Shown in pieces: positions 34,458 through 63,735 of a DNA stretch of 64,000 nt. The DNA is from an uncultured Gammaproteobacteria bacterium (GTDB taxonomy: Bacteria > Patescibacteriota > Patescibacteriia > Patescibacteriales > UBA12465). Each line of letters begins with the position of its first letter. The first letter of the stretch is position 1. The notes below the pieces were generated by a model that was not told the DNA's origin, ran no database searches, and saw only the letters and a list, made by a program, of their open reading frames with translations. The stretch is from positions 243,832 through 307,831 of the forward strand of contig CAZXEE010000001.1 in assembly GCA_964639785.1 (NCBI GenBank). Direction: 5' to 3'. The translations under genes and the position numbers were made by a program.

Positions 34458-34472
34458 GGTAATTTTAAGCAC

Positions 34473-34501
34473 TTGACTTAGTTTTAGGTTTGTTGTACCA
34501 T
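34473..34501 (+). promoter_or_regulatory. Sigma70-type promoter of an ORF-less unit
   Basis: TTGACT-N17-TACCAT. Confidence 0.4.
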
Positions 34502-34507
34502 TTGGTT

Positions 34508-34655
34508 TATGAATTTGGTTCTTTCTGAAGAATATAAAGATTGTAGGATTGATAGCTAGTACTGATGGTCTGGGTGCGGCCATACAGTCGTAAGAGGATG
34601 AAGCGAAAGTCCGCTAGTGATACAATCCGCCTCCCTGGAAACAGGGAGGTTTTTT
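34508..34655 (+). ncRNA. Candidate structured small RNA (~150 nt), class unknown
   Basis: Closing helix GGATTG..CAATCC extended by ATAGCTAG/CTAGTGAT. Inner hairpin ACTG-ATGGTC-tgggtgc-GGCCAT-a-CAGT. Strong terminator CCTCCCTG-gaaa-CAGGGAGG plus TTTTTT. About 130 nt of AT-rich DNA separates it from the next ATG. Confidence 0.4.
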
Positions 34656-34783
34656 ATTTTTTAAAGGAATTGAATAATAATATTTAGCATAATTTTTGAA
34701 ATAATATCTTCGGTTGTTGGTTATTTTTCATTAAAATGCTATAATATAATCTGAACCCAAGATAATAATTAAATCCAGTTTAT

Positions 34784-34987
34784 ATGAAAAAAAATGAGAG
34801 CTTGATAGACCGTTTTGCCCGGATCGTCATCGCTTTGCTGGTGATGTTCGTGGCTTATGTGATGTTGACCGGTTTCTGGCAGTGGGTAGCTTATGCCTTT
34901 TCCGCTTTCCTGGCTATCAGCGCCGGTACCGGAGTCTGTCTGATTTATAAATTGCTCGGTATCAACACCAACAAATTAGATTATTAA
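34784..34987 (+). CDS. DUF2892 (YgaP-TM-like) small membrane protein
   Basis: ..IDRFARIVIALLVMFVAY...LAISAGTGVCLIYKLLGINT fits the DUF2892 pattern. Confidence 0.6.
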   Translation: MKKNESLIDRFARIVIALLVMFVAYVMLTGFWQWVAYAFSAFLAISAGTGVCLIYKLLGINTNKLDY

Positions 34988-35002
34988 TCTGAAACTTCTA
35001 TT

Positions 35003-35033
35003 AAAAAACCCTATTCTGAGAATAGGGTTTTTT
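35003..35033. terminator. Bidirectional terminator
   Basis: AAAAAACCCTATTC-tgag-AATAGGGTTTTTT. Confidence 0.8.
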
Positions 35034-35043
35034 ATTTATTCGA

Positions 35044-36792
35044 TTAAGCATTCAATATCAGCCACTCATCTTCTTTTTCTTTGATAGCCATTTTGGTTTC
35101 TTCCAGTTCTTTAACCTTGATAGGGTCATAGCTGCTGGGATTCTTAAGGAAGAAATCAATCAGTTTCTTTTCTTTGTTTTTTAATTTTTCCAGATCTCTT
35201 TCCAGGCTTTTAGTCATCTTCTGGTTTTCTTTTTTTTCTAAGTATCTGTTCCTGGCCTCTTCGTTCTTATTATTATTGGAATTACTCTCGGCTATTTCTC
35301 GCTCCAATTGTTTTTCTAATCTGTCGACATATTCTTCATAGCTTTCCATCAGCTGCTTGGCCTGTCCGTTCTTGATTTCCACCAATCCGGTAGCCAGCAG
35401 ATTGGTAAAGGTTCGGTCATGGCTGGTGAAGATGATGGTGCCGTTCCATCTTTGTAAAGCTGAGCCGAGAGCTTCAGTGGTTTCAAAGTCGAGGTGGCAG
35501 GTCGGTTCATCCAAAATGAAGATATCCGGTTTGGATAATAGCAGTCCGGCGAGAAGCAGGCGGGATTTTTCGCCGCCGGATAGGACGCCGATCGGTTTCT
35601 TCAGCTCTTCATCTTTGAAAAGGAAATCTCCAGCCATCTTCAAGACTGATTCGGTCTTGATTTCGGCGGCAGCTGAGCGCCTAAGGTAGGTTCCGACCTG
35701 TTCCTTGTCGTTTAAGGTAATGATAGCTTCTTGGCCGTGATAGGCGATGCGGCTATCAGTTGAGAGCCGGAAAGAGCCGGAAACGACCGGTAAAGATCCG
35801 ATTATCGTCCGGATAAAGGTAGTTTTGCCTTGGCCGTTTAAACCGAGGATAGATATCTTTTCGCTGGATCGGCAATCGATATTGATGTCTGAAACTATGG
35901 CTTGGCCGTCATAGCCGATAGCCAGGTCGTTCGTCCGCAGGGCGATATTGTGGCGCTTGATGGTTGGCGGGATATTGATCCGGGTGATACCGGCGCGATG
36001 TTCGATAGTGATCCGTTTGTTTTCCATTTTGCTGATCTTCTTGATGACTGCCTGCGCTTGCTTGGCTTTAGTAGCCTTGAATCGGAAGCGATCAACGAAC
36101 TCCTGCATATGTTTCTGTTGGCGGTCCAGGCTTTCATTGGCTTTGATCAGGGCAGCCAGCTTTTGTTCCTTGAAAGCGAGATAGGCTTCAATGTTGCCGG
36201 AATAGTGGTAGCAGCCGGTGGCGGATATGTCTAGAGTTTCATGACAGGTCCGTTTGAGGAATTCTCGGTCATGGGAGATGATGAGGAAGCTGCCTTTATA
36301 TGACTTCAGATAGTTTTCTAGTAATAATAAAGTGTTCAAGTCCAGATAGTTAGTTGGTTCATCGAGCAGGAAGAGGTTCGGTTCGTTTAAGAGCATGGCC
36401 GTCAGTTTCAAGCGCATGCGCCAGCCACCGGAAAGATTATCAGCTGGTCCGTTCAATTTGTCTTCGCCTAATTGGAACTTGGAGGCCAGTTTCTTGATAG
36501 TCCATTCTTCGCGCCCGCTGATCCGCTTGAGATAGTCTAGGGCGCTTTCTGAAATTTCGAATCTTTCCTCTTGTTTCAAGTAGCCGATCCGAGCTTCGCT
36601 CCCGATCATAATCTGTCCGTTATCGGCTGTTTCTTCGTTAGTGAGGATACGGAAGAGGGTGGATTTTCCGGCGCCGTTCTTGCCGATGACTCCGATCTTC
36701 TGGCGGGTGGAGACGGTAAAAGTGAGGCCGGAAAATATTTTCTGGCCGCTATAGCTTTTACTCAGATTGTTGACTTGGAGTAATATAGACAT
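35044..36792 (-). CDS. ABC-F family ATPase (two ABC domains, no TM; 582 aa from ATG 36792)
   Basis: Walker A GKNGAGKST and GLNGQGKTT. Signatures LSGGWRMRL and LSGGEKSRL. Coiled-coil C-terminal tail. Confidence 0.85.
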   Translation of the reverse strand: MSILLQVNNLSKSYSGQKIFSGLTFTVSTRQKIGVIGKNGAGKSTLFRILTNEETADNGQIMIGSEARIGYLKQEERFEISESALDYLKRISGREEWTIKKLASKFQLGEDKLNGPADNLSGGWRMRLKLTAMLLNEPNLFLLDEPTNYLDLNTLLLLENYLKSYKGSFLIISHDREFLKRTCHETLDISATGCYHYSGNIEAYLAFKEQKLAALIKANESLDRQQKHMQEFVDRFRFKATKAKQAQAVIKKISKMENKRITIEHRAGITRINIPPTIKRHNIALRTNDLAIGYDGQAIVSDINIDCRSSEKISILGLNGQGKTTFIRTIIGSLPVVSGSFRLSTDSRIAYHGQEAIITLNDKEQVGTYLRRSAAAEIKTESVLKMAGDFLFKDEELKKPIGVLSGGEKSRLLLAGLLLSKPDIFILDEPTCHLDFETTEALGSALQRWNGTIIFTSHDRTFTNLLATGLVEIKNGQAKQLMESYEEYVDRLEKQLEREIAESNSNNNKNEEARNRYLEKKENQKMTKSLERDLEKLKNKEKKLIDFFLKNPSSYDPIKVKELEETKMAIKEKEDEWLILNA

Positions 36793-36867
36793 AGTCGATA
36801 CTATTAATTTAAGCGTAATAACGGATATTTTGCAAATAGTGCCGCTTTTTACTATACTGATAGGACT

Positions 36868-38166
36868 ATGAAACAAAAGGATGCCTTAGCGATACTTGAA
36901 GCAGGCCATAATGTCCTCTTGACCGGTCCAGCCGGCAGCGGCAAGACTTTTTTGTTGAACAAATATATCGCTTATCTGAAGAAAAAGGGCATCGGAGTGG
37001 CTGTTACCGCCTCAACCGGCATTGCGGCGACGCATATCGGCGGCCGGACTATCCACTCTTGGGCCGGAATCGGGATCAAGGATCATCTGACTCCGCGCGA
37101 TATCCAGAGTTTGACTAAGAGATCATATCTCAAGAAACAATTTGCGCAGACGGAGGTGTTGGTGATCGATGAAGTTTCCATGCTCCACGCCCATCGCTTG
37201 GATATGGTTGATAGGGTTTGCCAGGCTTTTAAGAAGAATTTTCTGCCTTTCGGTGGCATCCAGGTAGTGATGTCCGGAGATTTTTTCCAATTGCCACCGG
37301 TGTCTTCTGGGGGAGATGAAGCAGAGTTTGTCTACAAAGCAGATGTCTGGTCTGAGATGGATTTGCGGATTTGCTATCTGGATGAACAGCATCGTCAGAA
37401 CGATCAGAAGATGACTAAGATCTTGCAGAGTTTTCGGCAGAATGCGGTCGATGAAGAAGTGGTCCGGATGCTTGAAGCCAGGATTAACCAGAAGCCGAAA
37501 AGCAGTTTGCGCCCAGTCCGTCTCTTTACCCATAATATCGATGTCGATGCGATCAATGAGGCTGAGCTGGCCAAGATTGCAGCGCCGGAGTTTAGCTATC
37601 GGATGTCAGGCGATGGAGAAAAGAAATTAGTGGAATCTCTCAAGAAGAATTGCTTGGCGCCGGAAACCTTGATTTTGAAGAAGGGCGCTTTAGTGATGTT
37701 CGTCAAGAACAAGTTCAAAGATGAGCGGGCAGTCTATGTTAACGGCAGTATGGGAATAGTGGTCGGTTTCGATGAGAATGATTTTCCCATCGTCCGTCTC
37801 AATTCCGGCCAAGAGGTTCTGGTGACACCGGATAGCTGGACTATTGATGACGAGCATCAGATACTAGCCAAGATTACCCAGCTTCCGCTCCGGCTGGCTT
37901 GGGCTATTACGGTTCATAAGAGCCAGGGAATGACCCTGGAGATGGCTGAAATCGACCTGAGCCGCTCTTTCGGCTATGGTATGGGTTATGTGGCCTTGTC
38001 TCGTCTAACTAGCCTAGAGGGGCTGTATTTGCTGGGAATCAATCAGATGGCCTATCAGCTTGATCCTCAGGTTTTCGCTTATGACAAGGAGCTTTTGGCC
38101 TTGTCGCGGCAAGCCAAGGCCGATATCCCATCAAAAGTGCGGAAGAAACAAGGAGTCCTGGTTTAA
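36868..38166 (+). CDS. PIF1/RecD-like superfamily 1 DNA helicase
   Basis: Walker A GPAGSGKTF, VLVIDEVSML, GDFFQLPPV and AITVHKSQGMT motifs. Confidence 0.75.
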   Translation: MKQKDALAILEAGHNVLLTGPAGSGKTFLLNKYIAYLKKKGIGVAVTASTGIAATHIGGRTIHSWAGIGIKDHLTPRDIQSLTKRSYLKKQFAQTEVLVIDEVSMLHAHRLDMVDRVCQAFKKNFLPFGGIQVVMSGDFFQLPPVSSGGDEAEFVYKADVWSEMDLRICYLDEQHRQNDQKMTKILQSFRQNAVDEEVVRMLEARINQKPKSSLRPVRLFTHNIDVDAINEAELAKIAAPEFSYRMSGDGEKKLVESLKKNCLAPETLILKKGALVMFVKNKFKDERAVYVNGSMGIVVGFDENDFPIVRLNSGQEVLVTPDSWTIDDEHQILAKITQLPLRLAWAITVHKSQGMTLEMAEIDLSRSFGYGMGYVALSRLTSLEGLYLLGINQMAYQLDPQVFAYDKELLALSRQAKADIPSKVRKKQGVLV

Positions 38167-51716: not shown

Positions 51717-52376
51717 ATGAAAAATATTAAATACTTTATCGTCTTAGCTTTATTCTTTCCCTTGATAACTTCGGCCAAGGATAATATTTTGTTATCCGTT
51801 CCGTTCACCGTCCAGGCGCCGGAACAGGAATGGAAGGATAGCCGTTTCCAGGATGCCTGCGAAGAGGCTAGCGTTTTGATGGCGGTTAAATGGACTAAAG
51901 GTGAGAAGATCACATTAGACAAAGCCGGACGCCGAGCTATCCATAATGAGATTATCAAGATGGCTGATTATCAGCAGAAGAAATACAAGAATTATCACGA
52001 TACTTCGGCCGCGGATACTGCCAGCAGATTATTGAGCGGTTATTTCAAGTATGATAAATGGGAGGTCAAGAAAGATATCACTATCAAAGAAATCATTTCT
52101 TATTTAGAGAAGGGAAAAGTAGTTATCGTTCCGACTGATGGCCGTCTGCTCAAGAATCCTTACTTTACTGCACCGGGTCCGGAACGCCATATGGTCCTGA
52201 TCAAGGGGTATGATTACAAGACTAAGCGTTTTATCACTAATGATCCTGGAACTAAAAGAGGGGAAAACTATCGTTATCCGGAAAAAGTCTTATACTCAGC
52301 TATTGTGGATTATCCGACTGGTTATCATGAAAAGATTTTGAAAATCAAGAAAAACGCTATAATTATCAGCAAATAG
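51717..52376 (+). CDS. Secreted C39-like (Peptidase_C39_2-type) cysteine peptidase homologue
   Basis: Signal peptide. LSVPFTVQAPE...QDACEEASVLMAV (candidate Cys) and later ..ERHMVLIKGYD.. (candidate His). Confidence 0.5.
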   Translation: MKNIKYFIVLALFFPLITSAKDNILLSVPFTVQAPEQEWKDSRFQDACEEASVLMAVKWTKGEKITLDKAGRRAIHNEIIKMADYQQKKYKNYHDTSAADTASRLLSGYFKYDKWEVKKDITIKEIISYLEKGKVVIVPTDGRLLKNPYFTAPGPERHMVLIKGYDYKTKRFITNDPGTKRGENYRYPEKVLYSAIVDYPTGYHEKILKIKKNAIIISK

Positions 52377-52396
52377 GGCCAAAAAGCCCTATTTTT
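52374..52396 (+). terminator. Intrinsic terminator overlapping the stop codon
   Basis: TAGGGC-caaaaa-GCCCTA followed by TTTTT. Confidence 0.6.
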
Positions 52397-52544
52397 GGTA
52401 TATTCTTGAAAATGGCTTGAATATTGCGGTCTTTTTTTAGAAATGCTATAATTATATTAAGAAATTTAAAAAATGTTCATAATTAACAAAGTCTTGGAAA
52501 TCTAATCCGAATTATTTCTTATTAGATTTTCAGGTTCAAATTTT

Positions 52545-52826
52545 ATGGCTAAAATGACAAAATCACAGTTGATGGCTGCTTTGTCCGAAAAAAGCGGATT
52601 AGCAAAGAAGCAAGTTGTAAGCTTCATGGAAATGTTATCAACTATGGCTTATAAAGAAGTTAAGTCTAGTGGAGAATTCGTATTACCAGGTTTCGGTAAA
52701 TTGGTTAAGATCCAGAGAAAAGCTAGAACTGGTCGTAACCCATTGACCGGTGCTGAGATCCAGATCCCAGCTAAGACTGTCGTAAAATTCAAGGTCGCTA
52801 AGGCTGTTAAGGATGCTATCCTTTAA
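52545..52826 (+). CDS. hup: HU/IHF family nucleoid protein
   Basis: ..MTKSQLMAALSEKSGL.KKQV...FGKL.....KARTGRNPLTGAEIQIPAK.VVKFK. Confidence 0.9.
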   Translation: MAKMTKSQLMAALSEKSGLAKKQVVSFMEMLSTMAYKEVKSSGEFVLPGFGKLVKIQRKARTGRNPLTGAEIQIPAKTVVKFKVAKAVKDAIL

Positions 52827-52963: not shown

Positions 52964-53563
52964 ATGGAAAAGACCAAGAAGAACCAATTGTGGCGTTTGC
53001 CATTATTGATCTTATCGTTAGCCGTCCTGGCTTATAGTATCGCTTTCTTGTTCTGGGGCTTGGTTCCTTGCGTCGGCAAGATCCAATTCTTCGCGGAAGT
53101 CGATTCTAAGTACATTATTCCCGGTTGGTCGCAAACTGTCAGTCTGCCGTTCATCTATTGGTTTATCTGGAATGCCGTCTTCATTTTTATTTCGACAAGC
53201 GTCATTGTCCTGACTGTTCATCACCTGGGCAAGCGACAAGTTGAAAAACCATTGTTGGTTTGGAAGTTTGGGTTGTCTATCGGCCTTTCAGTCGGATTGC
53301 TGATGGCCTTTACTATTGATCCGCTGGTCGGGTTGATCTTGGCGGCCATTATCTGGTTTGCTTTCCGGGAGGAGACAGATCTTCTGGGTAGTATGATTAT
53401 CGGCCTGGTGTTATCTTTCATATTCGGATTCTTGTTCGGCTTCATCTATTCCGTTTTGATCATCTTGTTGTTGGTGATAATCCTGGGAGTCATCTTGGCA
53501 CTTAAGGCCTTCACTGAATCAAGATTGTTTAAAAAGATCAGGGCCTGGGTAGAAGGGGAATAG
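52964..53563 (+). CDS. Hypothetical polytopic membrane protein (199 aa)
   Basis: Five or six hydrophobic helices. A hairpin plus T-run follows at about 53584-53612. Confidence 0.55.
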   Translation: MEKTKKNQLWRLPLLILSLAVLAYSIAFLFWGLVPCVGKIQFFAEVDSKYIIPGWSQTVSLPFIYWFIWNAVFIFISTSVIVLTVHHLGKRQVEKPLLVWKFGLSIGLSVGLLMAFTIDPLVGLILAAIIWFAFREETDLLGSMIIGLVLSFIFGFLFGFIYSVLIILLLVIILGVILALKAFTESRLFKKIRAWVEGE

Positions 53564-53627
53564 CAATCCAAAAGAAAATTTTCAAAGCCATCCAAAGGGG
53601 TGGCTTTTTTATTTTATCCGTTGAGTT

Positions 53628-53654
53628 GAACTATCCGGAATTTCCGGATGGTTC
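53628..53654. repeat. 13-bp inverted repeat
   Basis: GAACTATCCGGAA-t-TTCCGGATGGTTC (one G-T position). Confidence 0.6.
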
Positions 53655-53814
53655 AAGAAAGGATGGTATGGATTTTTGTGGAGCGTGGTAAAAATTTAGT
53701 AGTCAAGGAATTCTTGACCACTGCTTTACTGATTATAATTTGGTGTTCAGACTGAAGACATTAGTCTCTCCCGGCGTACTATTTGGCAGGGACAGTTCCT
53801 GGTTTTTGGATACC

Positions 53815-53843
53815 AAAAAACTATCCTCGTCGGATAGTTTTTT
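53815..53843. terminator. Bidirectional terminator
   Basis: AAAAAACTATCC-tcgtc-GGATAGTTTTTT. Confidence 0.8.
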
Positions 53844-53850
53844 GTCCATC

Positions 53851-54126
53851 TTATAACTTGATATTTTTCCACTCCTTGATATACTGTCCTATACCGTGTT
53901 CGTTTAGTTTGTTCTGGAGCTTGGTGTTCTTGTGGAGGTAGATGATGAGGGAGCTCAGATTGATGAAATAGCGGTTGCCCTTGACCTTGAATTCGAGATC
54001 CTTCTTGATGGCCCGACGGATGGTCTTGGTCTGGACTCCGCCGATCTTGGCGGCCTCGGAGACCGAGAGCCAGAGGGGGTTCTCGACGTTAATTTCGGTT
54101 TTGGGGCTGTTGATAGCTTTCTCCAT
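53851..54126 (-). CDS. Small helix-turn-helix DNA-binding protein (excisionase/MerR-type HTH_17-like)
   Basis: ..WLSVSEAAKIGGVQTKTIRRAIKKDLEFKVKGNRYFI.. fits the excisionase-family HTH pattern. 91 aa. Confidence 0.55.
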   Translation of the reverse strand: MEKAINSPKTEINVENPLWLSVSEAAKIGGVQTKTIRRAIKKDLEFKVKGNRYFINLSSLIIYLHKNTKLQNKLNEHGIGQYIKEWKNIKL

Positions 54127-54206
54127 ATGGGTGAGAAAAAAGTGAAATTTTTATCTATTTTTTTAGTTCGATTTTAGTCCTGGTTTTTTGGGTCAAAGCT
54201 CTCCTG

Positions 54207-54299
54207 GACTTAAGTCGGAAAGAGGCAGGAATCAAGGTTTGAAAAAGCTTTGATTTTTTCAATTTTTAGGGACTTAAGTCTAGGAATTTTTAGACTTAA
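54207..54299. promoter_or_regulatory. Repeated palindrome GACTTAAGTC (two perfect copies plus one half-site)
   Basis: Perfect copies at 54207-54216 and 54271-54280. GACTTAA at 54293-54299. They lie between the divergent HTH and sigma genes. Confidence 0.45.
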
Positions 54300-54349
54300 A
54301 CCAGTATTTATTCATATTAGCACAGTTATTGTTTTAGTCAAATGATCGC

Positions 54350-54377
54350 TTGATTTTCTCCTTTGTTATGATAGAAT
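54350..54377 (+). promoter_or_regulatory. Sigma70-type promoter of the sigma-factor gene
   Basis: TTGATT-N16-TAGAAT, about 50 nt upstream of ATG 54429. Confidence 0.4.
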
Positions 54378-54428
54378 TCCTACTGTAACATTTTGGCAAA
54401 TTCATCGTATTATTAATTGGAAAATAAA

Positions 54429-54998
54429 ATGACCAGTCGTAACCCCGTACAAAAATTTAAAGAGAGGAATTTATTTTCCCGCTTGAAAAAGAAGGACAAG
54501 GATGCTTTTATTGAAGCCTACGATTTGTATGTTGATGACATCCATCGCTTTGTCTATTTCAAGATCGGAAACAAGGAAGAGGCCAACGATTTGACCTCCA
54601 TCATCTTTTTGAAAACTTGGGAGTACATCAAGAATAATTCGCTCACCGATAGCCGGACATTGCGCGCCCTCTTATATAAGGTGGCTCGCACTTCCATCAT
54701 CGATTACTATCGTCAGAACCAGGCAGTCTCATCACTCGATGATGAGAACCATCCGATCGATGTCGTCGATGAAGGCCAGAGCGTGATCGAACAGATTAAT
54801 CTGAATTCTGATTTGGAAATCATCCGGAAGAAATTGCCGGAGCTCAAGATGGAATATCGCGAGGTGATCATCATGCGCTTCATCAATGACTTGGAGCTGG
54901 AAGAGATCGCTGAGATCACCGGCAAGACCAAGGGCAATGTCCGGGTTCTCCTGTTCCGCGCCTTGAAGGCGCTCAGGGAATCGATCGAAGAAAAATAA
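54429..54998 (+). CDS. ECF-type sigma-70 family sigma factor (alternative TTG start at 54417)
   Basis: Region 2 ..FIEAYDLYVDDIHRFVYFKIGNKEEANDLTSIIFLKTW... Region 4 ..YREVIIMRFINDLELEEIAEITGKTKGNVRVLLFRALKAL.. Confidence 0.85.
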   Translation: MTSRNPVQKFKERNLFSRLKKKDKDAFIEAYDLYVDDIHRFVYFKIGNKEEANDLTSIIFLKTWEYIKNNSLTDSRTLRALLYKVARTSIIDYYRQNQAVSSLDDENHPIDVVDEGQSVIEQINLNSDLEIIRKKLPELKMEYREVIIMRFINDLELEEIAEITGKTKGNVRVLLFRALKALRESIEEK

Positions 54999-55008
54999 AA
55001 ATAATATT

Positions 55009-55743
55009 ATGACCGACAGGGAACTGATCAAAAAATTGAATAACCTGAATAACGTTAAACCCGATGAAAGCTGGAAAGCTAGTCACCGGGAGATTTTGCT
55101 TTCCCAGGTCGAGAATACTAGTGGTGATTTCCATGTTTCCAAGATGGAGAATGTCTGGATGCTGACTCGCAACTTCTTGGCTTCCGTACCGCAGTTCGCT
55201 TACGCCTCTTTAGCTATCGTTGTCTTCTTGGCTACTGGAATCTTCTTTGGCGATAGATTGCCGGTCGGTCCTAACAATTCCTTATTCATCGCCCGGACCA
55301 TCAGCGAGAGAGCTAAGTTGAGCACTATGTCCGATGGAGAAGCTAAGAGCCGTTTGACTGTCCAATATGCTTCCGAGCATGCCCAGGACATCGCCAACAC
55401 TTTGTCAGAGAACAAGAGCGATGCTAACCAGGATGAAGTAGCTAAATTGAATACCACTTTCAAGACTGAGATCGCTAAGGTAAAAGAGAACTTGCCAGCT
55501 GCGAAGAATACTGATGATGAAGTCGTGACCATCGCTGAGTCTGATGTCGCTACCACCGGCTTATCCGTCTATGCTAATCCAGAGACTGGTGATAATAAAG
55601 GAGTGGTTGCTAGCTCAACACCGGTTGAGACCAAGAAAGATCCGAAGACTATTTTAGATGAAGCTGAGAAATTATTTGACGCCAAGGATTATTCCGGCGC
55701 TTTGGATAAATTGAAAGAGGCAGACGAGGTCATCAAGCAATAA
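55009..55743 (+). CDS. Membrane-anchored protein, putative anti-sigma factor
   Basis: Lies directly after the sigma gene. Short cytoplasmic N-terminus, single TM FAYASLAIVVFLATGIFF, and an acidic extracytoplasmic part. Confidence 0.4.
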   Translation: MTDRELIKKLNNLNNVKPDESWKASHREILLSQVENTSGDFHVSKMENVWMLTRNFLASVPQFAYASLAIVVFLATGIFFGDRLPVGPNNSLFIARTISERAKLSTMSDGEAKSRLTVQYASEHAQDIANTLSENKSDANQDEVAKLNTTFKTEIAKVKENLPAAKNTDDEVVTIAESDVATTGLSVYANPETGDNKGVVASSTPVETKKDPKTILDEAEKLFDAKDYSGALDKLKEADEVIKQ

Positions 55744-56063
55744 TCAATAGGACTTTGAAAATAAGCCGACGAGAATTGGTTTTTTATCGTTATCGTTAGT
55801 ATGGATCTGGAGCGAGATTGGTTCAGTCTCCCTGCAAATCCATATTAGTTCTGGAATTCGTTCCGGGATTGATCGGATTAACGAAACCGCGCAAGGTCGA
55901 TTTTCGATGTTAATCGAAAAGGTTTTGTTCTTAACACAATTCGCTCGTTGGATCTTAAAGATTTCCAATCTTTCCTAAGAAGGTATCTTCCATTTCACTT
56001 TAGCTTAAGGTGAAGTCGGGACCATTGGCTTTTAGGGAAGGAGTAAACCAACTAAGCTTTTTT

Positions 56064-56163
56064 CCGCGCGCTTATACATATAAGATGTATGTACTAAAGT
56101 CAGCGCTGGAGGCAAAAATTATTCCCATGATTTTTTCCCCTGCTTATATCTATAAGCGCGCGG
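56064..56163. repeat. 13-bp perfect inverted repeat enclosing ~75 nt
   Basis: CCGCGCGCTTATA (56064-56076) and TATAAGCGCGCGG (56151-56163). Each arm also belongs to a local palindrome: CTTATACATATAAG at 56071 and CTTATATCTATAAG at 56143. Confidence 0.85.
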
Positions 56164-56317
56164 GGAAGCGGGATTCCGGTTGATTTGCTGCCTACCCCTA
56201 TCAAGGCTTAATCATCCTGATATTAGCTACGGCTGATAGAGAGATAGATTATTCCGGATCGGGAAGGAGGAAAAGATCTTTGAGACTTATCTGACGAGTC
56301 AATTTCCTTCACGAAGA

Positions 56318-56341
56318 TAATATCCATCTATATGGATATTA
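56318..56341. promoter_or_regulatory. Perfect 10-bp inverted repeat just upstream of the surface-protein ATG
   Basis: TAATATCCAT-ctat-ATGGATATTA, ending 22 nt before ATG 56364 and overlapping a possible GATAAT -10 element. Confidence 0.45.
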
Positions 56342-56363
56342 CCCAAGTGACTTAAATCAAATT

Positions 56364-59300
56364 ATGAAAAACTTACGCAAATTCTTTGCAGTAAGCGTCA
56401 TGGCTTTGACTATCTTCGCTATGTCCGGTATTAGCCCAGTAAAGGCTAGTGCACAGGCTGGTGATTTAATCAAGAAAGACGGTTTATCAACCGTTTATTA
56501 CCTTGGTGCTGATGGCAAGAGATATGTATTCCCTAACGATGCTACCTATTTCTCATGGCATAAGGATTTTTCAGGTGTAGTAACTGTTTCTGCAACTGAA
56601 TTATCTTCTTATCCTTTAGGTGCAAACATCGTAATTCGTCCTGGTACTAAATTAGTAAAGATCACTACTGATCCTTCTGTTTATGCTGTCGAAGCTAACG
56701 GTGTTTTGAGAAAGATCCAGAGTGAATCTGACGCTATTGCTCTTTACGGCTCTAACTGGGCTAAGAGAGTAGTTGACGTTGCTGATTCATTCTTCACCAA
56801 CTACACTATCGGTACTCCATTACCTACAGGAACTGTTCCTGCTGGTTCATTGGTAAAGACTGCTGGTGCTGCAACTATCTACTACTTCGATGGTTCTACC
56901 TATCGCAGTATCGCTACCGAAGCTGCTTTCAACGCTAACAGATTCGATTTCAGCAATGTTATCACTGTTTCCGCTATCGGCACTTTAGGTACTCCAGTTG
57001 CTGGTGCTGAAGAAATGATCACCAAGGATTCACAGGGTGGTGCTACTGGCCCAGTTGTTACTGGTTCAAACTTAATGGTTTCATTAAGCTCCGCTACCCC
57101 AGCTGCTGCTTCTGTTCCACAGAACGGCGCTCGTGTTCCTTTCACCAAAGTTAACCTGACCGCAGCTAATGACGGTGCTGTTTCAGTAAATTCTATTACT
57201 GTAAAGAGAATCGGTCTTTCTAGCTACACTAACGTTGACAAGGTTTGGGCAGAAAAGGATGGTGTTGTTGTTGCTGCCAAGAAATCAATGAACTCCAATG
57301 ACGAATCAATCTTGACTTTCGTTCCAGCTTTAACTGTTGGTGCTGGTCAGACTGTTTCTTTGGACATCATTGCTTCTTTGACTGGTACTGGTGCTGGTAA
57401 CATCGGCTTAGGTGTCGCTTCCGCTTCAATGGTTAGCGCTTCCGCAGCTTCTGTAACTGGTTCTTTCCCAGTTAATGGTAACTTAATGTCACCAACTTCT
57501 TACAACGTTGTTAATTTATACATTTCATCAACTTCAACTGCAGCTACTACTGTAAAGGTTGGTGATGAAAAAGTAGAATTAGCTAAGGTTGGTTTAGATT
57601 TCAATGGTACTGCTAAAGATGCTGTAGTTAAATCTATCACTTTGAAGAACTCAGGTGTTGAAGATTTGGCTTCTGCTGCTATGAATCTTTACTTAGAATA
57701 CAATGGTAATAAGGTTTCCGAATCTACCGTTGTTAGTGGTCGTTACGTAACCTTCAACATGCCAGCCGCTGGTTTCGACATGTTAAAGGATGATGGTCAG
57801 AAATTGTTCTACGTTAAAGGTGATGTAGTTTCAAAAGCAAACACTGCTTCTGATAGCTTTACCTTCACTGTAAACAAGAGCACTGATGTTGTAGTTATTG
57901 AAAAAGCTACTGGTTTCGGTGCTAACGTTTACACCACTTCTAATGGTTCTACCGTTGCTGATGCTTATCCAATCTCTAGCGTTACTATTGACGCTGGTGC
58001 TTTGTCTGTTTCTAAGAAAACAACTTCCCCTTCTGATACCACTATCATCAAGGGTTCTGATAACGTTGTTTTATTAGCAAACATCAGAGCTGATGAAGCT
58101 ATCGTAGCTGACGGTTTGAAATTGATCTACGGTTCTAACGGTTCTAACGCTACTACCACTGATCAATTCGAGAATGTAAGAGTTTACGTTAATGGTAATC
58201 TTTTAGATTCTTTCGATCCTGCTTCCAGCACCAGCGCTTTGATCACTAAATCAATTGACAGCAATGTTTCATTGAATAAGGGTGATAACGAAGTTAAGGT
58301 AATGGTAAAGGCTAAATCTAATGCTACTGCAGCTTCTGCTTTCATGGCTAAATTAGATGGCACTACTATCTTTGCTGGAATGAATGGTGAATATGTAAGC
58401 TCTGGTAATGCAATTGCTAACCCAAGTGGTTCTGCAACCGGTGCTATCTTCACTGTTCAGGGTGCAAACTTGACCACTGTTAGAAATGATGGTTACTCCA
58501 ATGGTAAGATCATCGTTCGTGGTGGAAGTGATGTATCTTTGGGCAAATTTACTTTAAAGGCTGGCAATGACAGCGTTAAAGTAACTTCTATCGCTTTGGC
58601 TTCAAGCACTGGTACCACTTCAGCTTCTTATATCTCTGATATGAAGTTGTTTGTTGATGGTGTCCAGGTTGGTAATACCGTTGACTTCGGTTCAACTGGT
58701 GCTACCTTCTCTAGCTTGAATTTCACCATTGCTAAAGATGCTACTAAGAGCATTGAATTGAAAGGTTCTTTCGATTCTTCCGCTGCTGGTGCAGCTAATG
58801 GTTTCCAGACTGTTATGACCATTAATGCACAGGATTCCAGAGGCACTACTGTCACTGGTCCTTCCATCACTGGTACTACTGTTCAGTTCGCTATTTCAGA
58901 ACAGGGTTCTTTGAACCTGGCTGTTAATGGTGATACTCCAAGTGCCGGTATGTTAGCTACCAATGCTTCCGAGCATGAAGTTGCTCAATTCAAATTTACC
59001 TCTATCGATGATAGCGCTAATTTGACTGAGATCACTTTAGGTAACTATGCTACCTCTGGTGCTGCAATCACTACCTCTACCGATTCTAGAATTTCTGCTA
59101 TCAAATTATATGATGGCACCACTTTAATCGATAGCTTTGTTCCAGTTAATGGAGAAGGTACCTTCACTATTAGTGATAACAAGGTTAGTCTTGCTGCTAA
59201 CACCCAGAAAGTATTGTCTGTTAAGGTTGTTTTAAACAACATCGTTAATGACAATACCGCTACTGACAAAGACTTGAGATTTATGATCACTGATTATCAA

Positions 59301-59861
59301 TACAAGACTTCTGCCGGTACTTTGGTTGATACTCCAAACCAGACCGTTATTGCTAATAACTTCCGTATCAGAAAGACTGTTCCAACTGTAGCTATCTTAG
59401 CTTTACCTGATACCACCTTAAATGCTGGTAACAAGGTTGTTTCTAAGTTTACAGTTACTGCTGATGCTAATGCTGATGTAACTTTGAGAAAAGTCGTATT
59501 AACTTACGCTACTACCTCTCAGGCTACTATCGCTACTTTAGCTTCTAACTCAGTTAAGGTTAACGGTTCTACTAAGGCTGCTTCTTCTACTGTTGATGCT
59601 GCTTTAAAGACTGTTACTTTAGCTTTCGGTACTGAAGAAGTTATCGCTGCTGGTACTACCAAGACTTTTGAAATCTTGGCTACTGTCGGCGTTTCTGGTC
59701 AGGGCTCTGATTCCATCACTACTTCAATCGTAGAGGATGCTTCTTATGCCACTACCGGTAGCTTCGAATGGTCTGATAATGCTTCTATTTCTACTCCTAC
59801 CTGGTCAAATGGTCACACTGTTAAAGGTTTGACTACTGATACTCAGGTATTGTCTAAATAG
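56364..59861 (+). CDS. Large secreted surface protein, S-layer-like (1165 aa)
   Basis: Signal peptide MKNLRKFFAVSVMALTIFAMSGISPVKASA. No Cys. Thr/Ser/Ala/Val/Gly-rich beta-type sequence. Strong bias to T-ending codons. Very strong terminator. Confidence 0.6.
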   Translation: MKNLRKFFAVSVMALTIFAMSGISPVKASAQAGDLIKKDGLSTVYYLGADGKRYVFPNDATYFSWHKDFSGVVTVSATELSSYPLGANIVIRPGTKLVKITTDPSVYAVEANGVLRKIQSESDAIALYGSNWAKRVVDVADSFFTNYTIGTPLPTGTVPAGSLVKTAGAATIYYFDGSTYRSIATEAAFNANRFDFSNVITVSAIGTLGTPVAGAEEMITKDSQGGATGPVVTGSNLMVSLSSATPAAASVPQNGARVPFTKVNLTAANDGAVSVNSITVKRIGLSSYTNVDKVWAEKDGVVVAAKKSMNSNDESILTFVPALTVGAGQTVSLDIIASLTGTGAGNIGLGVASASMVSASAASVTGSFPVNGNLMSPTSYNVVNLYISSTSTAATTVKVGDEKVELAKVGLDFNGTAKDAVVKSITLKNSGVEDLASAAMNLYLEYNGNKVSESTVVSGRYVTFNMPAAGFDMLKDDGQKLFYVKGDVVSKANTASDSFTFTVNKSTDVVVIEKATGFGANVYTTSNGSTVADAYPISSVTIDAGALSVSKKTTSPSDTTIIKGSDNVVLLANIRADEAIVADGLKLIYGSNGSNATTTDQFENVRVYVNGNLLDSFDPASSTSALITKSIDSNVSLNKGDNEVKVMVKAKSNATAASAFMAKLDGTTIFAGMNGEYVSSGNAIANPSGSATGAIFTVQGANLTTVRNDGYSNGKIIVRGGSDVSLGKFTLKAGNDSVKVTSIALASSTGTTSASYISDMKLFVDGVQVGNTVDFGSTGATFSSLNFTIAKDATKSIELKGSFDSSAAGAANGFQTVMTINAQDSRGTTVTGPSITGTTVQFAISEQGSLNLAVNGDTPSAGMLATNASEHEVAQFKFTSIDDSANLTEITLGNYATSGAAITTSTDSRISAIKLYDGTTLIDSFVPVNGEGTFTISDNKVSLAANTQKVLSVKVVLNNIVNDNTATDKDLRFMITDYQYKTSAGTLVDTPNQTVIANNFRIRKTVPTVAILALPDTTLNAGNKVVSKFTVTADANADVTLRKVVLTYATTSQATIATLASNSVKVNGSTKAASSTVDAALKTVTLAFGTEEVIAAGTTKTFEILATVGVSGQGSDSITTSIVEDASYATTGSFEWSDNASISTPTWSNGHTVKGLTTDTQVLSK

Positions 59862-59925: not shown

Positions 59926-59980
59926 GTTTTTATGAAATTGAGCTAGAATGATTTCATATAATAAATTAAGCTTATATATT

Positions 59981-60844
59981 ATGTCTGGATCATTAAAGAT
60001 CGGTTTTATCGGTCAGGGTTTCATCGGGAAGAATTATGCTGATGATTTTGAGAATCGCGGCTTTGAGATTGTCCGTTATTCTCGTCGTTTGGATAGTGAA
60101 GAAAATCGGAAAAAATTGGCTGAGTGTGATATTGTCTTTATCGCTGTGCCTACCCCGACTACCCCTGATGGTTTTAGTTTTGATACGATTAGCGGAGTGC
60201 TGTCTTTAGTTGGATCAGGAAAATCAGCTGTTATCAAGTCGACTATTTTGCCTGGAACTTGTGAAAAGCTGCAAGCTAAATATCCGGATAAATATATATT
60301 TCATTCACCTGAATTCTTGACTGAAGTTAAAGCTGCTTTTGATGCTGCTAATCCGACTCGAAATATAGTGGGATATCCGATTGATAATGAGGAATACAGG
60401 AGAAGGGCTGAAGAGATATTGAGCGTTTTGCCGGATTCTCCGCTTAATTTCATTTGTAAGGCTAAAGAAGCAGAATTAGTTAAATATGCTAGTAACTGCT
60501 TTTTGTTTATGAAAGTTATCTATGCCAATATCCTTTATGATCTAGCGCAAAAAGAGGGAAGTGATTGGCAAAAAATCAGATCTGGGATGTCTTCTGACCC
60601 AAGGATAGGTTCGAGCCATTTAGACCCGGTTCATGCTTCGGGAACGGATATTAATACTGGCCGTGGAGCCGGTGGACACTGCTTTATAAAGGATTTTGCA
60701 GCTCTAAGGCTCTATGCTGAAGAAATGGGCCTAGACAAGGCTTCTTTAGACTTCTTAAAGGCCGCTGAAGCTAAGAATATTGAATTATTGAAGGGAAGTG
60801 AAAAAGATTTAGATCTTCTGAGGGGGGTTTATGGTGAAATTTAG
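59981..60844 (+). CDS. UDP-glucose/GDP-mannose dehydrogenase family protein, short form (287 aa from ATG 59981)
   Basis: N-terminal Rossmann motif KIGFIGQGFIGKN, SPEFLTE, and catalytic-Cys context GGHCFIKD. No C-terminal UDP-binding domain. Confidence 0.6.
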   Translation: MSGSLKIGFIGQGFIGKNYADDFENRGFEIVRYSRRLDSEENRKKLAECDIVFIAVPTPTTPDGFSFDTISGVLSLVGSGKSAVIKSTILPGTCEKLQAKYPDKYIFHSPEFLTEVKAAFDAANPTRNIVGYPIDNEEYRRRAEEILSVLPDSPLNFICKAKEAELVKYASNCFLFMKVIYANILYDLAQKEGSDWQKIRSGMSSDPRIGSSHLDPVHASGTDINTGRGAGGHCFIKDFAALRLYAEEMGLDKASLDFLKAAEAKNIELLKGSEKDLDLLRGVYGEI

Positions 60845-60945
60845 CAATTTTTATTGGGTTTTTTAAGTGTTTTTGTTTAAATACTTTTGATTTTTTGAAA
60901 TTAAGAGTATTTTTTGTTATTTTGGCTATTTTTTAATAATTTAAG

Positions 60946-60974
60946 TTGAATTTTATTTGGTAAAATGGTAGAAT
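60946..60974 (+). promoter_or_regulatory. Sigma70-type promoter of the glycan cluster
   Basis: TTGAAT-N17-TAGAAT. Confidence 0.45.
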
Positions 60975-61026
60975 TGCTATGTCGTATTGTTTTGTTAAGG
61001 TCGATAAATTTGGTTAAAATAAGCTG

Positions 61027-62340
61027 ATGTTAACTAGAATTTTTGCAAAAATTGAGAGATTTATCCCTAAAAAATGGCGTTGGGTTTTGAACCATGAAGG
61101 ATTCAAGCGTTATTTTGCTAATACCGGATGGATGTTTTTTGGCCAAATGTTCAACTTAGGTTTGTCTTTTTGCATAGGCATCTGGATGGCTCGATATTTG
61201 GGGCCTGAAAATTATGGTATTTTGAATTATGTATTAGCTTTTGTTGGACTTTTTGCTTTTATAGCGGATCTGGGTGTTAATAGTATTTTAAATAGAGAAT
61301 TAGTAAAATTTCCCGAGAAGAGAGATGAGCTTTTAGGGACGGCTTTGCGTTTGAAGATCGGGGGCGGAATAGTTGCTTTTTTGGTGACGGTTTGCGTGGT
61401 ATTTTTTACAAATGCTTCGCCTATGATAAGAGGGTTGGTTATTTTGTATTCTCTGACCTTTGTCCTTCAGGCTGTTAATGTCATTAGTACCTTTTTCCAG
61501 GCTAGAGTAGAAGCTAAAAACAATGTTCGTTCTCAAATTATTTCTTCTTCAATTTCATCGGTTCTGAAGATTTTCATGATCTTATCCGGTTTTGGGGTTA
61601 TTTGGTTGATGCTCATTTATGTTTTGGATTCCATTTGGTTGGGAATTGCCTTAATGGTGGCTTATCGCCGATCAGGGCTAGAAATAAGATCTTGGAATTT
61701 TAGTTGGATAGTTGCCAAAAGAATGTTGTCTGATTCTTGGTTGTTAATGTTAACCAGTGTTTCCATTTCTATCTATATGAGGATTGATCAGGTTATGATT
61801 AAGCAGATGGTTAATGAGACAGCTGTTGGTTTGTATTCGGCTGCCACAAAGCTCTCAGAGGTTTGGTATGTTATTCCTATGACAATTTGTCCATCATTAT
61901 TTTCGGCTATAGTAAATTCTAGAAAGATTGACAAGAATTTATATTTTAGCAGATTAAAAAAGCTTTTTTTCTTGATGTTATTTTTAGCGATAGTCGTCGC
62001 AACCTCTATTACGTTATTAGCAAAACCGATAATCTCTATATTATTTGGAAGTGCATATATGGGATCAGTTTCTGCTTTGCGTATTTATGTTTGGTCGGTT
62101 ATCGGTACGTTTTTAGGTGTGGTTATTGGTCAGTATTTAATTACGGAAAATTATAGTAAGATTTATTTTCTGATTACTGTTTTTGGAGCGATCGCTAATG
62201 TCATTTTAAATATTCTGTTGATTCCAAAAATGGGAATAAATGGCGCAGCCTTAGCAACAGTCGTTTCTTATCTTGTTGTTGTGTTATCCTTGTTATTTTT
62301 TAGAAAAACTAGAACTGATTTTTTGAAAATGTTATTTTAA
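61027..62340 (+). CDS. Polysaccharide flippase (Wzx/MOP superfamily)
   Basis: 437 aa with about 12-14 TM helices. The layout is typical of polysaccharide biosynthesis (Wzx) proteins. Confidence 0.65.
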   Translation: MLTRIFAKIERFIPKKWRWVLNHEGFKRYFANTGWMFFGQMFNLGLSFCIGIWMARYLGPENYGILNYVLAFVGLFAFIADLGVNSILNRELVKFPEKRDELLGTALRLKIGGGIVAFLVTVCVVFFTNASPMIRGLVILYSLTFVLQAVNVISTFFQARVEAKNNVRSQIISSSISSVLKIFMILSGFGVIWLMLIYVLDSIWLGIALMVAYRRSGLEIRSWNFSWIVAKRMLSDSWLLMLTSVSISIYMRIDQVMIKQMVNETAVGLYSAATKLSEVWYVIPMTICPSLFSAIVNSRKIDKNLYFSRLKKLFFLMLFLAIVVATSITLLAKPIISILFGSAYMGSVSALRIYVWSVIGTFLGVVIGQYLITENYSKIYFLITVFGAIANVILNILLIPKMGINGAALATVVSYLVVVLSLLFFRKTRTDFLKMLF

Positions 62341-62360
62341 TATTAAATTAATTCCTATTT

Positions 62361-63032
62361 ATGTTTAAAAAATTAAAATCCAAAGTAATATTTTATTTGC
62401 CAATAATTAAGATTTTATTCAGTCAGCCTAAATATATTAAATATATTTTTTCTTGGGGTAGATCACCTTTATCTAATGAGGTTCCCTGGGTTAACTTTGA
62501 TTTAAAAGAATGGCTTGACCGAAATCTTAATAAGGAAATGATAGTTTTTGAATATGGTAGTGGTGGTTCAACTTTATATTATTCAAAAAGAGTTAAGAAG
62601 GTCGTGACTGTTGAGCATGATCAATCTTGGTATGAAATAGTTAAAAAGCATTTGGTCGCGAAGAAAATAATGAATGTGGATATTTATTGTTGTCCACCAG
62701 AAAAAAATATTAATGGTGAAACCTTTGTTTCTCTAAGTAGTGATAAAAATTATGAAGGTCAAAACTTTAATAAATACGTAGAAAAAATTAAAGAATACCC
62801 TGATAATTATTTTGATTTAATAGTGGTTGATGGTCGAGCAAGAAATAGTTGTATGAACAATGTTTTATCCAAAATAAAAGATGGTGGTTATATATTACTT
62901 GATAATTCGGAACGGGAAGAATATGGGCCAGCTATTAATTTATTAGATAAATTTGATGTTATGGTATTTTTTGGTCCAGGTTTTTATTGCAATGGTCCAT
63001 GGGAGGCTAGAGTTTGGAAGATAAAGAAGTAG
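62361..63032 (+). CDS. Putative class I SAM-dependent methyltransferase
   Basis: Motif I-like VFEYGSGGST, later DLIVVDG and GGYILLDN. Confidence 0.45.
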   Translation: MFKKLKSKVIFYLPIIKILFSQPKYIKYIFSWGRSPLSNEVPWVNFDLKEWLDRNLNKEMIVFEYGSGGSTLYYSKRVKKVVTVEHDQSWYEIVKKHLVAKKIMNVDIYCCPPEKNINGETFVSLSSDKNYEGQNFNKYVEKIKEYPDNYFDLIVVDGRARNSCMNNVLSKIKDGGYILLDNSEREEYGPAINLLDKFDVMVFFGPGFYCNGPWEARVWKIKK

Positions 63033-63048
63033 TTATTAAATAAAATAT

Positions 63049-63735
63049 ATGAAAAATATATTGGATAAGATCTATTCAGCCTATAATCAAAAAACTTTTA
63101 AAAAAGAGGATAATGTTGTTTTCAAATTTTTTGATAATTTAAAAATTAATGAAAATAATATTGAATATTTAGAGGTTGGTTCTGGTTTGTGTAGATTTCC
63201 AATGATGGTTAGAGACAAATATAAAAATTTTAATATTAAGTGCCTGGAAAAGAATGTTGACCTGGTCAATTTAGGCGTGAATAATGGATTGAATGCCACC
63301 GTCGGGGATATAGTCGAATTATCTTTTAATGATGAAAAATTTAATGTTATCCATTGTTCTCATGTCATTGAACATCTAGATTATAAAAGTATTGTTAGTT
63401 CTTTGGATGAAATGTTTAGGGTTTTAAAGTCTGGTGGATATTTAATATTAAGGAGTCCTTTGATGTATCCCGGCTTTTATTTCGACATAGATCATGTCAG
63501 GCCTTATCCCCCGGAATCTATACTTAATTATTTCAACAATAGGCAGCAGCAGAGGGTTGGATCTTATAAGATCTTCGAAGTTTTAAGGTGGTATAGAAGA
63601 GAAGCCGCTTCGTTTTATAATTCAAATTGTGGCATTGTTAAAATATTTAATTATCTTTTAAAGCTGTTTTGGTTAGTGATTGGTTTCCCGAGGTCTAAAC
63701 CGAATGGTTATATTTTGGTAATAAAAAAGAATTAA
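63049..63735 (+). CDS. Class I SAM-dependent methyltransferase
   Basis: YLEVGSGLCRF (motif I), FNVIHCSHVIEHL and LKSGGYLILRSP. Confidence 0.65.
   Translation: MKNILDKIYSAYNQKTFKKEDNVVFKFFDNLKINENNIEYLEVGSGLCRFPMMVRDKYKNFNIKCLEKNVDLVNLGVNNGLNATVGDIVELSFNDEKFNVIHCSHVIEHLDYKSIVSSLDEMFRVLKSGGYLILRSPLMYPGFYFDIDHVRPYPPESILNYFNNRQQQRVGSYKIFEVLRWYRREAASFYNSNCGIVKIFNYLLKLFWLVIGFPRSKPNGYILVIKKN

Follow-up and report, generated by a model that had tools for sequence, protein, structure and literature searches.

The 64-kb stretch of DNA analysed here (the window), part of a Patescibacteria assembly, carries, on its + strand, an extracytoplasmic function (ECF) sigma factor gene, an anti-sigma-like gene and a gene for a large surface protein. 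The last two are separated by a gap, and within it positions 55797-56188 (+) are one member of a conserved two-domain RNA family of about 390 nucleotides (nt). The RNA is present at 46 homologous loci of Falkowbacteria-like Patescibacteria, as one copy per locus in a fixed position and orientation. Patescibacteria, or candidate phyla radiation (CPR) bacteria, are ultra-small, mostly uncultured and largely host-dependent, and their surface proteins are thought to mediate attachment. Strongly covarying structured RNAs of several hundred nucleotides are rare in bacteria, and historically they have been ribozymes, riboswitches or scaffolds of ribonucleoproteins (RNPs). The features of the locus that frame the RNA are these.

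54384-54410 (+): ECF-type promoter motif TGTAAC-N16-CGTAT, the only match in the window, 1.4 kb upstream of the gap
54417/54429-54998 (+): ECF sigma factor gene (Pfam Sigma70_r2/r4 and NCBIfam ECF models)
55009-55743 (+): anti-sigma-like gene, 244 amino acids (aa), weak DUF5667 match
55744-56363 (+): the gap, from the anti-sigma stop codon (55741-55743) to the surface-protein ATG at 56364
56364-59861 (+): surface-protein gene, 1165 aa, with a signal peptide; presumed target of the leader

A sequence-only reading of this DNA had described the gap as free of open reading frames (ORFs), dense in hairpins and not AT-rich, and its coordinates and all three descriptions hold. The ORFs inside are short and none is convincing, the longest having 74 aa on the - strand and 57 aa on the + strand. 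The GC content is 0.41-0.43, against about 0.30 in other spacers (0.29-0.33, for example at 52300-52599 and 54250-54549). The minimum free energy (MFE) of the + strand is -208.5 kcal/mol, far below that of shuffled sequence (-156.4 +/- 6.7; z -7.8), and better by 39 kcal/mol than that of the - strand (-169.5 kcal/mol; z -5.2). To call the gap by far the longest non-coding stretch was too strong, as 34458-35043 is a gap of 586 nt with ORFs of at most 67 aa. That second ORF-poor gap lies between genes at 33831-34457 (+) and 35044-36876 (-), convergently or divergently placed.

Anatomy and conservation of the RNA

Relatives were collected by two routes. The N-terminal third of the surface protein, used as query against species-representative genomes, gave 40 loci. 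Metagenome contigs were scanned with a bare DNA pattern, GCGGGATTCCGNNNGATTT, drawn from block D of the RNA, and among the 120 stretches found, about 21 were true copies and about 100 were chance matches. The gene order ECF sigma, anti-sigma, RNA, surface protein occurs in every true copy with enough flank, and the same order is seen in all RNA-bearing genome loci. Because 21 loci were recovered by the DNA pattern alone, the RNA has been found independently of the protein and is tied to this context. The downstream surface proteins across the RNA-bearing loci are only 30-45% identical. In most relatives the gap upstream of the orthologous surface gene measures 340-700 nt. BLAST of the window gap found full-length similarity to two loci only, L008 (81%) and L007 (71%), and many more loci share a block of about 28 nt, GRAGCGGGATTCCGRYYGATTTR, placed 40-200 nt before the ATG.

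The relatives fall into three architectural sub-types. In type I (for example L003, L011, L043) the 5′ domain carries an inner arm that is long and conserved, and the interior of the 3′ domain is different. Type II is a more compact form (for example L028, L033, L090), and the window type comprises the window, L007, L008 and L062. Most of the relatives' records are labelled Candidatus Falkowbacteria. The records of L004, L005, L013, L015, L016, L018, L022, L028 and L032 are titled 'uncultured Gammaproteobacteria bacterium' despite a clear Patescibacteria-type locus; this title is probably a default or wrong taxonomic label of these metagenome-assembled genomes. All 12 pattern matches in viral contigs were due to chance, with no RNA copy among them, and a phage origin was rejected on that ground.

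The elements of the RNA and its surroundings are listed below. A5, A6 and A7 denote sub-alignments, and R1 and R2 covariance models, described after the list.

55766-55785 (+): weak hairpin CCGA..TTGG followed by T6, read from the sequence; kept in L007, L008 and L062
55797-55808 (+): alpha, TAGTATGGATCT, 5′ strand of H1, pairing with beta (repeat search, window MFE fold)
55809-55831 (+): variable inner hairpin inside H1 (alignments, window MFE fold)
55836-55847 (+): beta, AAATCCATATTA, 3′ strand of H1 and also 5′ strand of H2
55848-55869 (+): optional hairpin in the H2 loop, GTTCTGGAATTCGTTCCGGGAT (window MFE fold), variably present among relatives
55873-55879 (+): A3, TCGGATT, 3′ strand of H2 (A7, A5); in the window 55875-55879 pairs with 55837-55841
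55880-55929 (+): B domain, consisting of H3, the AAGGTCG bulge and H4 (R1 match, A5)
55880-55888 with 55921-55929 (+): H3, enclosing the AAGGTCG bulge and H4
55893-55899 (+): AAGGTCG, near-invariant bulge, its GGTCG invariant or nearly so
55900-55920 (+): hairpin H4 (A5)
55930-56042 (+): linker, with a weakly conserved U-rich motif, AATTCGCTCGTTGG, and an insert of about 90 nt
56043-56052 (+): GTAAACCAAC, 5′ strand of P_a (A6 covariation)
to 56058 (+): TAAGCT after the 5′ strand of P_a; TAA is unpaired and GCT forms the first three bases of P_b
56056-56169 (+): P_b, long stem of the 3′ domain, GCTTTT..CCGCGCGCTTATA to TATAAGCGCGCGG..AAGC (repeat search, A6, window MFE fold)
56114-56135 (+): apical hairpin inside P_b, its CCCATG loop kept in about 20 non-type-I relatives
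56170-56178 (+): block D, unpaired near-invariant GGGATTCCG (A6 columns 47-55 invariant or at least 90% conserved)
56179-56188 (+): GTTGATTTGC, 3′ strand of P_a and 3′ end of the RNA (A6; R2 match at 56144-56189)
56189-56363 (+): spacer to the start codon, without a terminator or promoter-like site
56318-56341 (+): hairpin TAATATCCAT-ctat-ATGGATATTA, ending 22 nt before the ATG

Three unpaired motifs are near-invariant: AAGGUCG, AAGCU and GGGAUUCCG. Block D is the most conserved stretch of the family. The window MFE fold of 55795-56192 (-136 kcal/mol) recovers H1, H3/H4 with the bulge, P_a, P_b and the apical hairpin. In type I relatives the inner hairpin of H1 is swapped for a longer arm with a conserved stem, GUUAGUUUAUCUC/GAGAUAAAUUAAC. 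The linker insert is specific to the sub-lineage and is unconserved outside the window and L008. Inspection by eye found no convincing tertiary pairing among AAGGUCG, GGGAUUCCG, the CCCAUG loop and the linker, nor between block D and the Shine-Dalgarno (SD) sequence, and invariant bases cannot covary.

A whole-gap MAFFT alignment and RNAalifold on raw alignments were noisy and recovered H2 only, so anchored sub-alignments and two covariance models were used. A5 holds H2, H3 and H4. For A6, the 3′ domain, the two ends of 35 sequences were aligned and the variable interior was trimmed. A7, for H1 and H2, is anchor-extracted and gap-free, with 33 sequences. R1 covers beta, H2, H3, AAGGUCG and H4 and was built from 17 relatives, with the window left out. 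It gives one match per locus, 46 of them at the expected place, and a single match in the window, at 55832-55930 (+) (31 bits, E 1e-4). R2 was built from A6 and, as the interior had been removed, aligns long-interior members only partially; its one site in the window is 56144-56189. Neither model found another copy of the RNA in the window.

All the helices, H1, H2, H3/H4, P_a and P_b, covary strongly. Over the five helix sets 85-98% of cells are paired, compared with 24-55% when partners are slid. In A5 the figure is 88.9% (72.2% in shuffled and 32-55% in slid controls), compensatory changes occur in 17/17 pairs, and the covariation score is 0.544 against 0.257, with none of 500 shuffles scoring as high. 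In A6, 91.2% are paired, 15 of the 22 pairs show compensatory changes, and the score is 0.470 against 0.242, again matched by none of 500 shuffles. Taken singly, P_a is 97.7% paired (6/10 pairs compensatory) and P_b 85.7% (9/12). Among the paired cells G.U occurs 186 times and A.C or C.A 38 times, and this excess of G.U shows that the + strand, the gene strand, is the one selected as RNA.

The pairings noticed by eye in the sequence-only reading map onto this structure in different ways. A 13-bp long-range inverted repeat is real and in fact longer (56064-56084 with 56143-56163, 21 nt at 95%); it forms the core of P_b and covaries. The proposal that each arm could instead fold into its own local palindrome did not generalise: the strict form occurs in only 6 of 51 relatives and in the window costs about 10 kcal/mol more than the long stem, and local palindromes were rejected as a general second switch. 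The 10-bp repeat TAATATCCAT/ATGGATATTA before the ATG is present as described. L007 and L008 carry a hairpin in the corresponding position, its stem altered but its CTAT loop identical; the hairpin is kept within sub-lineages only. TCTTA-AAGATT...AATCTT...TAAGA is there, at 55954-55981, and lies in the sub-lineage insert, where it is not kept even in L008. Likewise GATTAACGAAA/TTTCGATGTTAATC exists, but it competes with the covarying H3/H4 and is not kept in L007.

Two side observations concern the 3′-domain interior and the stretch before alpha. In L130, L141, L085, L125, L032, L016, L012 and L025, judged by eye, the 5′ strand of P_b (X) can pair with X'1, an imperfect copy of the 3′ strand close by, as a local hairpin, or with X'2, the distal 3′ strand, as P_b. 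The three strands change together between lineages, for example CCCCGCGC / GCGGGG / GCGCGGGG versus CCCACAC / GUGUGGG / GUGUGGGG, and this three-strand competition in the 3′ domain may be a second switch. Upstream of alpha, between the anti-sigma stop codon and the RNA, palindromes of the form GTCATTCC(C)GCGAAGGCGGGAATGAC or ...CGCAATGACAAT, resembling repetitive extragenic palindromes (REP) or miniature inverted-repeat transposable elements (MITE), are inserted in L102, L130, L045, L090/L133 and L031, and L102 holds several copies.

The RNA matches no known family. With the 4227 models of Rfam 15 at gathering thresholds, the window gave three tRNAs elsewhere and nothing else. Within 55600-56500 at E<=10 there were three chance-level matches (13-17 bits, where gathering thresholds are 50-56), and in nine homologous loci at E<=1 nothing was found in the gap. 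A partial resemblance to the CR-I element of RNase P, noted earlier, proved spurious. It amounts to a loose likeness between a 14-nt string, GGTGAAGTCGGGAC, and GAGGAAAGUCCGGGC; the string lies in the insert, which L008 alone shares, neither L007, L062 nor any other relative has it, and bacterial RNase P (RF00010/RF00011) gave no match at E<=10. In our literature searches neither this RNA nor the gene cluster turned up, nor did any lineage-specific structured RNA of Patescibacteria/CPR bacteria.

Two helices that share strand beta

Beta pairs either with alpha, forming H1 (12 bp), or with A3, forming H2 (7 bp), and seven beta positions are common to both. Both helices covary in A7: H1 is 87.1% paired, with compensatory changes in 11 of 12 pairs, and H2 is 91.3% paired, with compensatory changes in all seven. 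The beta variants AAUCCGC, AAUUCGC, AGUCCG and GGUCUG are matched in both alpha and A3. Mismatches in H1 are commonest at the CC of beta, which H2 always pairs, and this site could be the starting point for a displacing strand.

When each helix was enforced in turn, the free energy difference between the H2 and H1 folds (ddG) ran from -1.7 to +9.9 kcal/mol over the 33 sequences, with a median of +4.9, in folds of -33 to -79 kcal/mol. The window shows a difference of 3.3 to 4.6 kcal/mol, varying with the stretch folded. Mutually exclusive, covarying helices with a small conserved energy gap suggest a switch, and we infer from these folds that the RNA may indeed pass between H1 and H2. As in a riboswitch, a leader with covarying helices here carries conserved unpaired bases, AAGGUCG and GGGAUUCCG.

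Transcription of the locus

The link of the RNA to the ECF system is real and runs through shared operon membership. The ECF-type motif TGTAAC-N16-CGTAT, which is like SigW/SigX-type ECF promoters (TGAAAC/TGTAAC-N16-17-CGTA/CGAC) but lies outside the gap, occurs in 36 of 51 loci, once in each and on the + strand. In type II loci and those of the window type it stands just upstream of sigma, often as CGTATAATTAA-ATG and thus nearly leaderless. In type I it stands between sigma and anti-sigma, so that sigma is no longer auto-regulated from that motif. The RNA-bearing gap itself lacks the motif in 50 of 51 loci and has a loose match in the remaining one. In the window, the motif at 54384-54410 is likely the promoter of the whole sigma/anti-sigma/RNA/surface-protein unit.

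Signals for a separate transcript were not found. No sigma-70-like promoter was called in 55400-56600, where shuffled sequence gives about 2.5. No terminator was found between P_a and the ATG in 46 loci, over spacers of 39-188 nt. Such spacers are in many loci too short for a separate promoter and leader, and several measure only 39-58 nt. The only terminator-like call on the + strand, at 56161-56178, is an artefact, being block D inside P_a. From the anti-sigma stop to alpha there are 0-25 nt in type I, 53 nt in the window and 60 to more than 200 nt in type II, and the aligned 75 nt upstream of alpha hold no motif at a fixed distance. The simplest reading is a single ECF-driven transcript that would carry (sigma), anti-sigma, RNA and surface protein. 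Sensing of upstream translation, with ribosomes that finish the anti-sigma ORF unwinding alpha, fits the type I distances but not those of the window or type II, and was rejected.

Several further features touch on this transcript. The weak hairpin and T6 at 55766-55785 were not called by the terminator scan; they could be a leaky terminator of the sigma/anti-sigma transcript in the window sub-lineage only. In the type I loci L144, L003, L013, L005, L002, L156 and L010 a sigma-70-like promoter (TTGC..N17..TGnTAnAAT) stands about 20-70 nt before the sigma start. It is followed in the same sigma leaders by a conserved GC hairpin and U run, GGCGGG..N..CCCGTTATTTTTT, which looks like a terminator or attenuator. 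In L003, L004, L006 and L035 the last 90 nt or so before the surface ATG hold a long hairpin with a conserved loop, ACTACTATTG, whose 5′ arm, ATCATTATTAATC, is repeated at the start codon (AATCATTATTTATG). Either copy is a potential partner of the 3′ arm, and translation might be switched on or off in this way; the four loci are close relatives, and their independence is weak.

The surroundings of the unit are as follows. Upstream of sigma, 53564-54416 is AT-rich and contains only a small minus-strand HTH_17-like ORF (53851-54126); it is preceded by a 199-aa ORF at 52964-53563 that matches no family. Besides its signal peptide, the surface protein has a sequence rich in Ser, Thr, Ala and Val. 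Searches of Pfam, NCBIfam and the PDB gave no relative, and it has no recognised S-layer domain, so that it is S-layer-like by composition only. On its 3′ side and on the same strand lie polysaccharide-related genes (59948-63735): dehydrogenase, flippase and methyltransferase-like ORFs. The UDP-glucose/GDP-mannose dehydrogenase has 298 aa and is short for its family. With these genes downstream on the same strand, the unit controlled by the leader may exceed one gene.

What the RNA may do

With moderate confidence, we favour the view that 55797-56188 (+) is a cis-acting, bistable leader or intercistronic RNA of the surface-protein mRNA, working as a conformational switch. A structured leader on the gene strand is the most likely assignment because the helices covary, G.U pairs are in excess, neither a terminator nor a promoter comes before the ATG in 46 loci, and some spacers measure only 39 nt. 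The invariant unpaired motifs, taken with the competition between H1 and H2, favour a sensing switch over simple stabilisation. We propose that the invariant unpaired motifs would bind a partner, either a protein (for example unassembled surface protein) or a small ligand, and that binding would shift the balance between H1 and H2. In the H1 state a long terminal stem would lock the 5′ end, and this stem may shield the message or serve as a duplex for processing. In the H2 state, with beta paired to A3, the strand that abuts the B domain, the 5′ end would be free. The balance would then set how much translatable surface-protein mRNA comes from ECF-driven transcription.

Several points weigh against this proposal. 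H1 is the predicted ground state nearly everywhere, and H2 could be a post-processing form or a folding intermediate. No expression platform linking H1/H2 to a terminator or ribosome-binding site was found, and the sub-lineages differ in the region adjoining the ATG. For a metabolite riboswitch, a tie to one fixed gene would be unusual. Three loci, L017, L027 and L029, keep the sigma, anti-sigma and surface genes with no detectable RNA, in gaps of 421, 209 and 134 nt; the RNA has either been lost there or diverged past the reach of the models. The proposal also leans on a presumed transcription start, presumed processing sites, even presumed expression of the RNA, and on a hypothetical ligand or protein partner. 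Finally, the covariation measures are inflated to a degree, since the sequences share a phylogeny and the alignments were partly fitted to the structure. The controls with slid partners and the fold of the single sequence nevertheless argue that the signal is real and not wholly inflation.

Comparison with riboswitches brings out both sides. This RNA has in common with them a 5′ leader position, covarying helices around conserved unpaired bases, and exclusive helices that share a strand and differ little in energy. Its length of about 390 nt far exceeds that of typical aptamers. It is confined to one gene family, not of metabolic or transport genes, and to one lineage; this gene context offers no hint of a ligand, and no Rfam family matches. 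Riboswitches act through a terminator or an SD-sequestering platform, and neither is recognisable here; no conserved pairing of the RNA to the SD or start region was found, and no terminator in the 46 spacers. In its presumed working the RNA comes closest to a bistable leader of riboswitch type, and in its position to the stabilising leaders of S-layer mRNAs. We rate this RNA as a new class within a known kind, the structured cis-regulatory leader RNA. A bolder version of the idea is tentative: a new class of large CPR-specific sensing RNA, in which the invariant AAGGUCG and AAGCU/GGGAUUCCG would serve as pockets for a partner (metabolite, second messenger or the surface protein itself) whose binding would flip H1/H2 and couple ECF stress signalling to surface-protein production, or, failing that, a self-processing catalysis would separate the regulatory and structural parts of the operon transcript.

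A rather unlikely alternative is that the RNA senses nothing and is a passive stabiliser or processing element, a structured 5′ untranslated region (UTR) that protects a very abundant mRNA or offers a double-stranded cut site in the polycistronic ECF transcript, with H2 forming after alpha is removed. The S-layer slpA genes of Lactobacillus acidophilus and L. crispatus, which are highly expressed, have long untranslated leaders with a predicted stable structure that includes the 5′ end, and long stabilising 5′ UTRs are documented for S-layer mRNAs (PMC3666127). Here, too, what is probably a long leader precedes a secreted surface-protein gene that is S-layer-like. Moreover, in type I loci H1 and the inner stem together make up a long terminal duplex, about 26 bp, that follows immediately on the anti-sigma stop, and the 46 spacers show no expression platform. 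However, a stabiliser needs neither three near-invariant unpaired motifs, kept across proteins of 30-45% identity, nor a second domain of about 150 nt, and it leaves both the covariation of A3 with beta and the narrow, conserved energy gap between the folds unexplained. Two domains, near-invariant unpaired motifs and competing helices also set this RNA apart from slpA leaders, which have a length of one to two hundred nucleotides and are not known as conserved multi-domain folds. Those stand behind a strong promoter of their own, whereas this RNA appears to lie inside an ECF sigma/anti-sigma operon and its S-layer connection is a presumption. The first option of the sequence-only reading, a long stabilising or regulatory leader, therefore stands as far as a structured gene-strand RNA and a likely leader are concerned, while the two-domain switch features exceed a passive stabiliser.

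It is improbable that the RNA is an independent large non-coding RNA freed from the operon transcript, acting as an RNP scaffold, a ribozyme or a trans regulator, with its position reflecting co-expression only. Its size of about 390 nt, multi-domain fold, invariant unpaired bases and covariation do resemble large non-coding RNAs. P_a closes the 3′ domain neatly, and the spacers to the ATG are variable (39-188 nt) and unconserved. With OLE, GOLLD, ROOL and raiA it has in common a length of several hundred nt, a multi-helix fold, strong covariation and a narrow phylogenetic range. Unlike those RNAs, it lies strictly in cis, 39-188 nt before one particular gene; none of 46 loci has a terminator behind it, and several spacers leave only 39-58 nt. 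There is one copy per locus in constant position and orientation, all 46 in one context, with no copies elsewhere in the window or in viral contigs and no promoter-like site of its own. The earlier suggestion of an independent structured RNA is thus right about the structure and less likely as to the independence.

Processive antitermination appears more doubtful still. The nascent RNA would modify RNA polymerase for read-through of the 3.5-kb gene and the polysaccharide genes, or it would block Rho loading. The eps-associated RNA (EAR) of Bacillus and the put RNA of phage HK022 are structured RNAs in operons (cell-surface operons for EAR) that act in cis on their own transcript, and this RNA is like them in its placement between genes of a cell-surface operon. 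It lies between short regulatory genes and a very long gene, same-strand genes for UDP-glucose dehydrogenase and a Polysacc_synt flippase follow at 59948-62340, and an untranslated gap of 400-600 nt would otherwise be open to polarity. But the RNA is much larger than EAR or put, has no sequence or structure match to any Rfam family, antitermination RNAs included, and the competition between H1 and H2 would be left unexplained.

A DNA-level element, that is, operators or a promoter for the adjacent ECF sigma or another regulator as the second option of the sequence-only reading had it, is already contradicted and very improbable: the gap does adjoin the sigma/anti-sigma pair and holds three GCGGATT-like sequences, in alpha, A3 and block D, and an inverted one in beta, but the ECF motif lies outside the gap (absent from it in 50/51 loci), the repeats drift between lineages yet stay complementary at spacings of 20 to more than 100 nt, which fits an RNA and not a protein-binding DNA site, and the G.U excess reflects selection on one RNA strand.

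A conformational switch in the leader thus remains our favoured interpretation, and the RNA offers a testable handle on the control of the dominant surface protein and on its tie to the ECF sigma/anti-sigma sensor. About 45 natural variants are available for structure determination, and synthesis is feasible for the 66-70 nt sub-domains as well as for the complete RNA. If the sensing reading is true, the RNA would couple envelope-stress (ECF) signalling with the main surface protein output of these bacteria.

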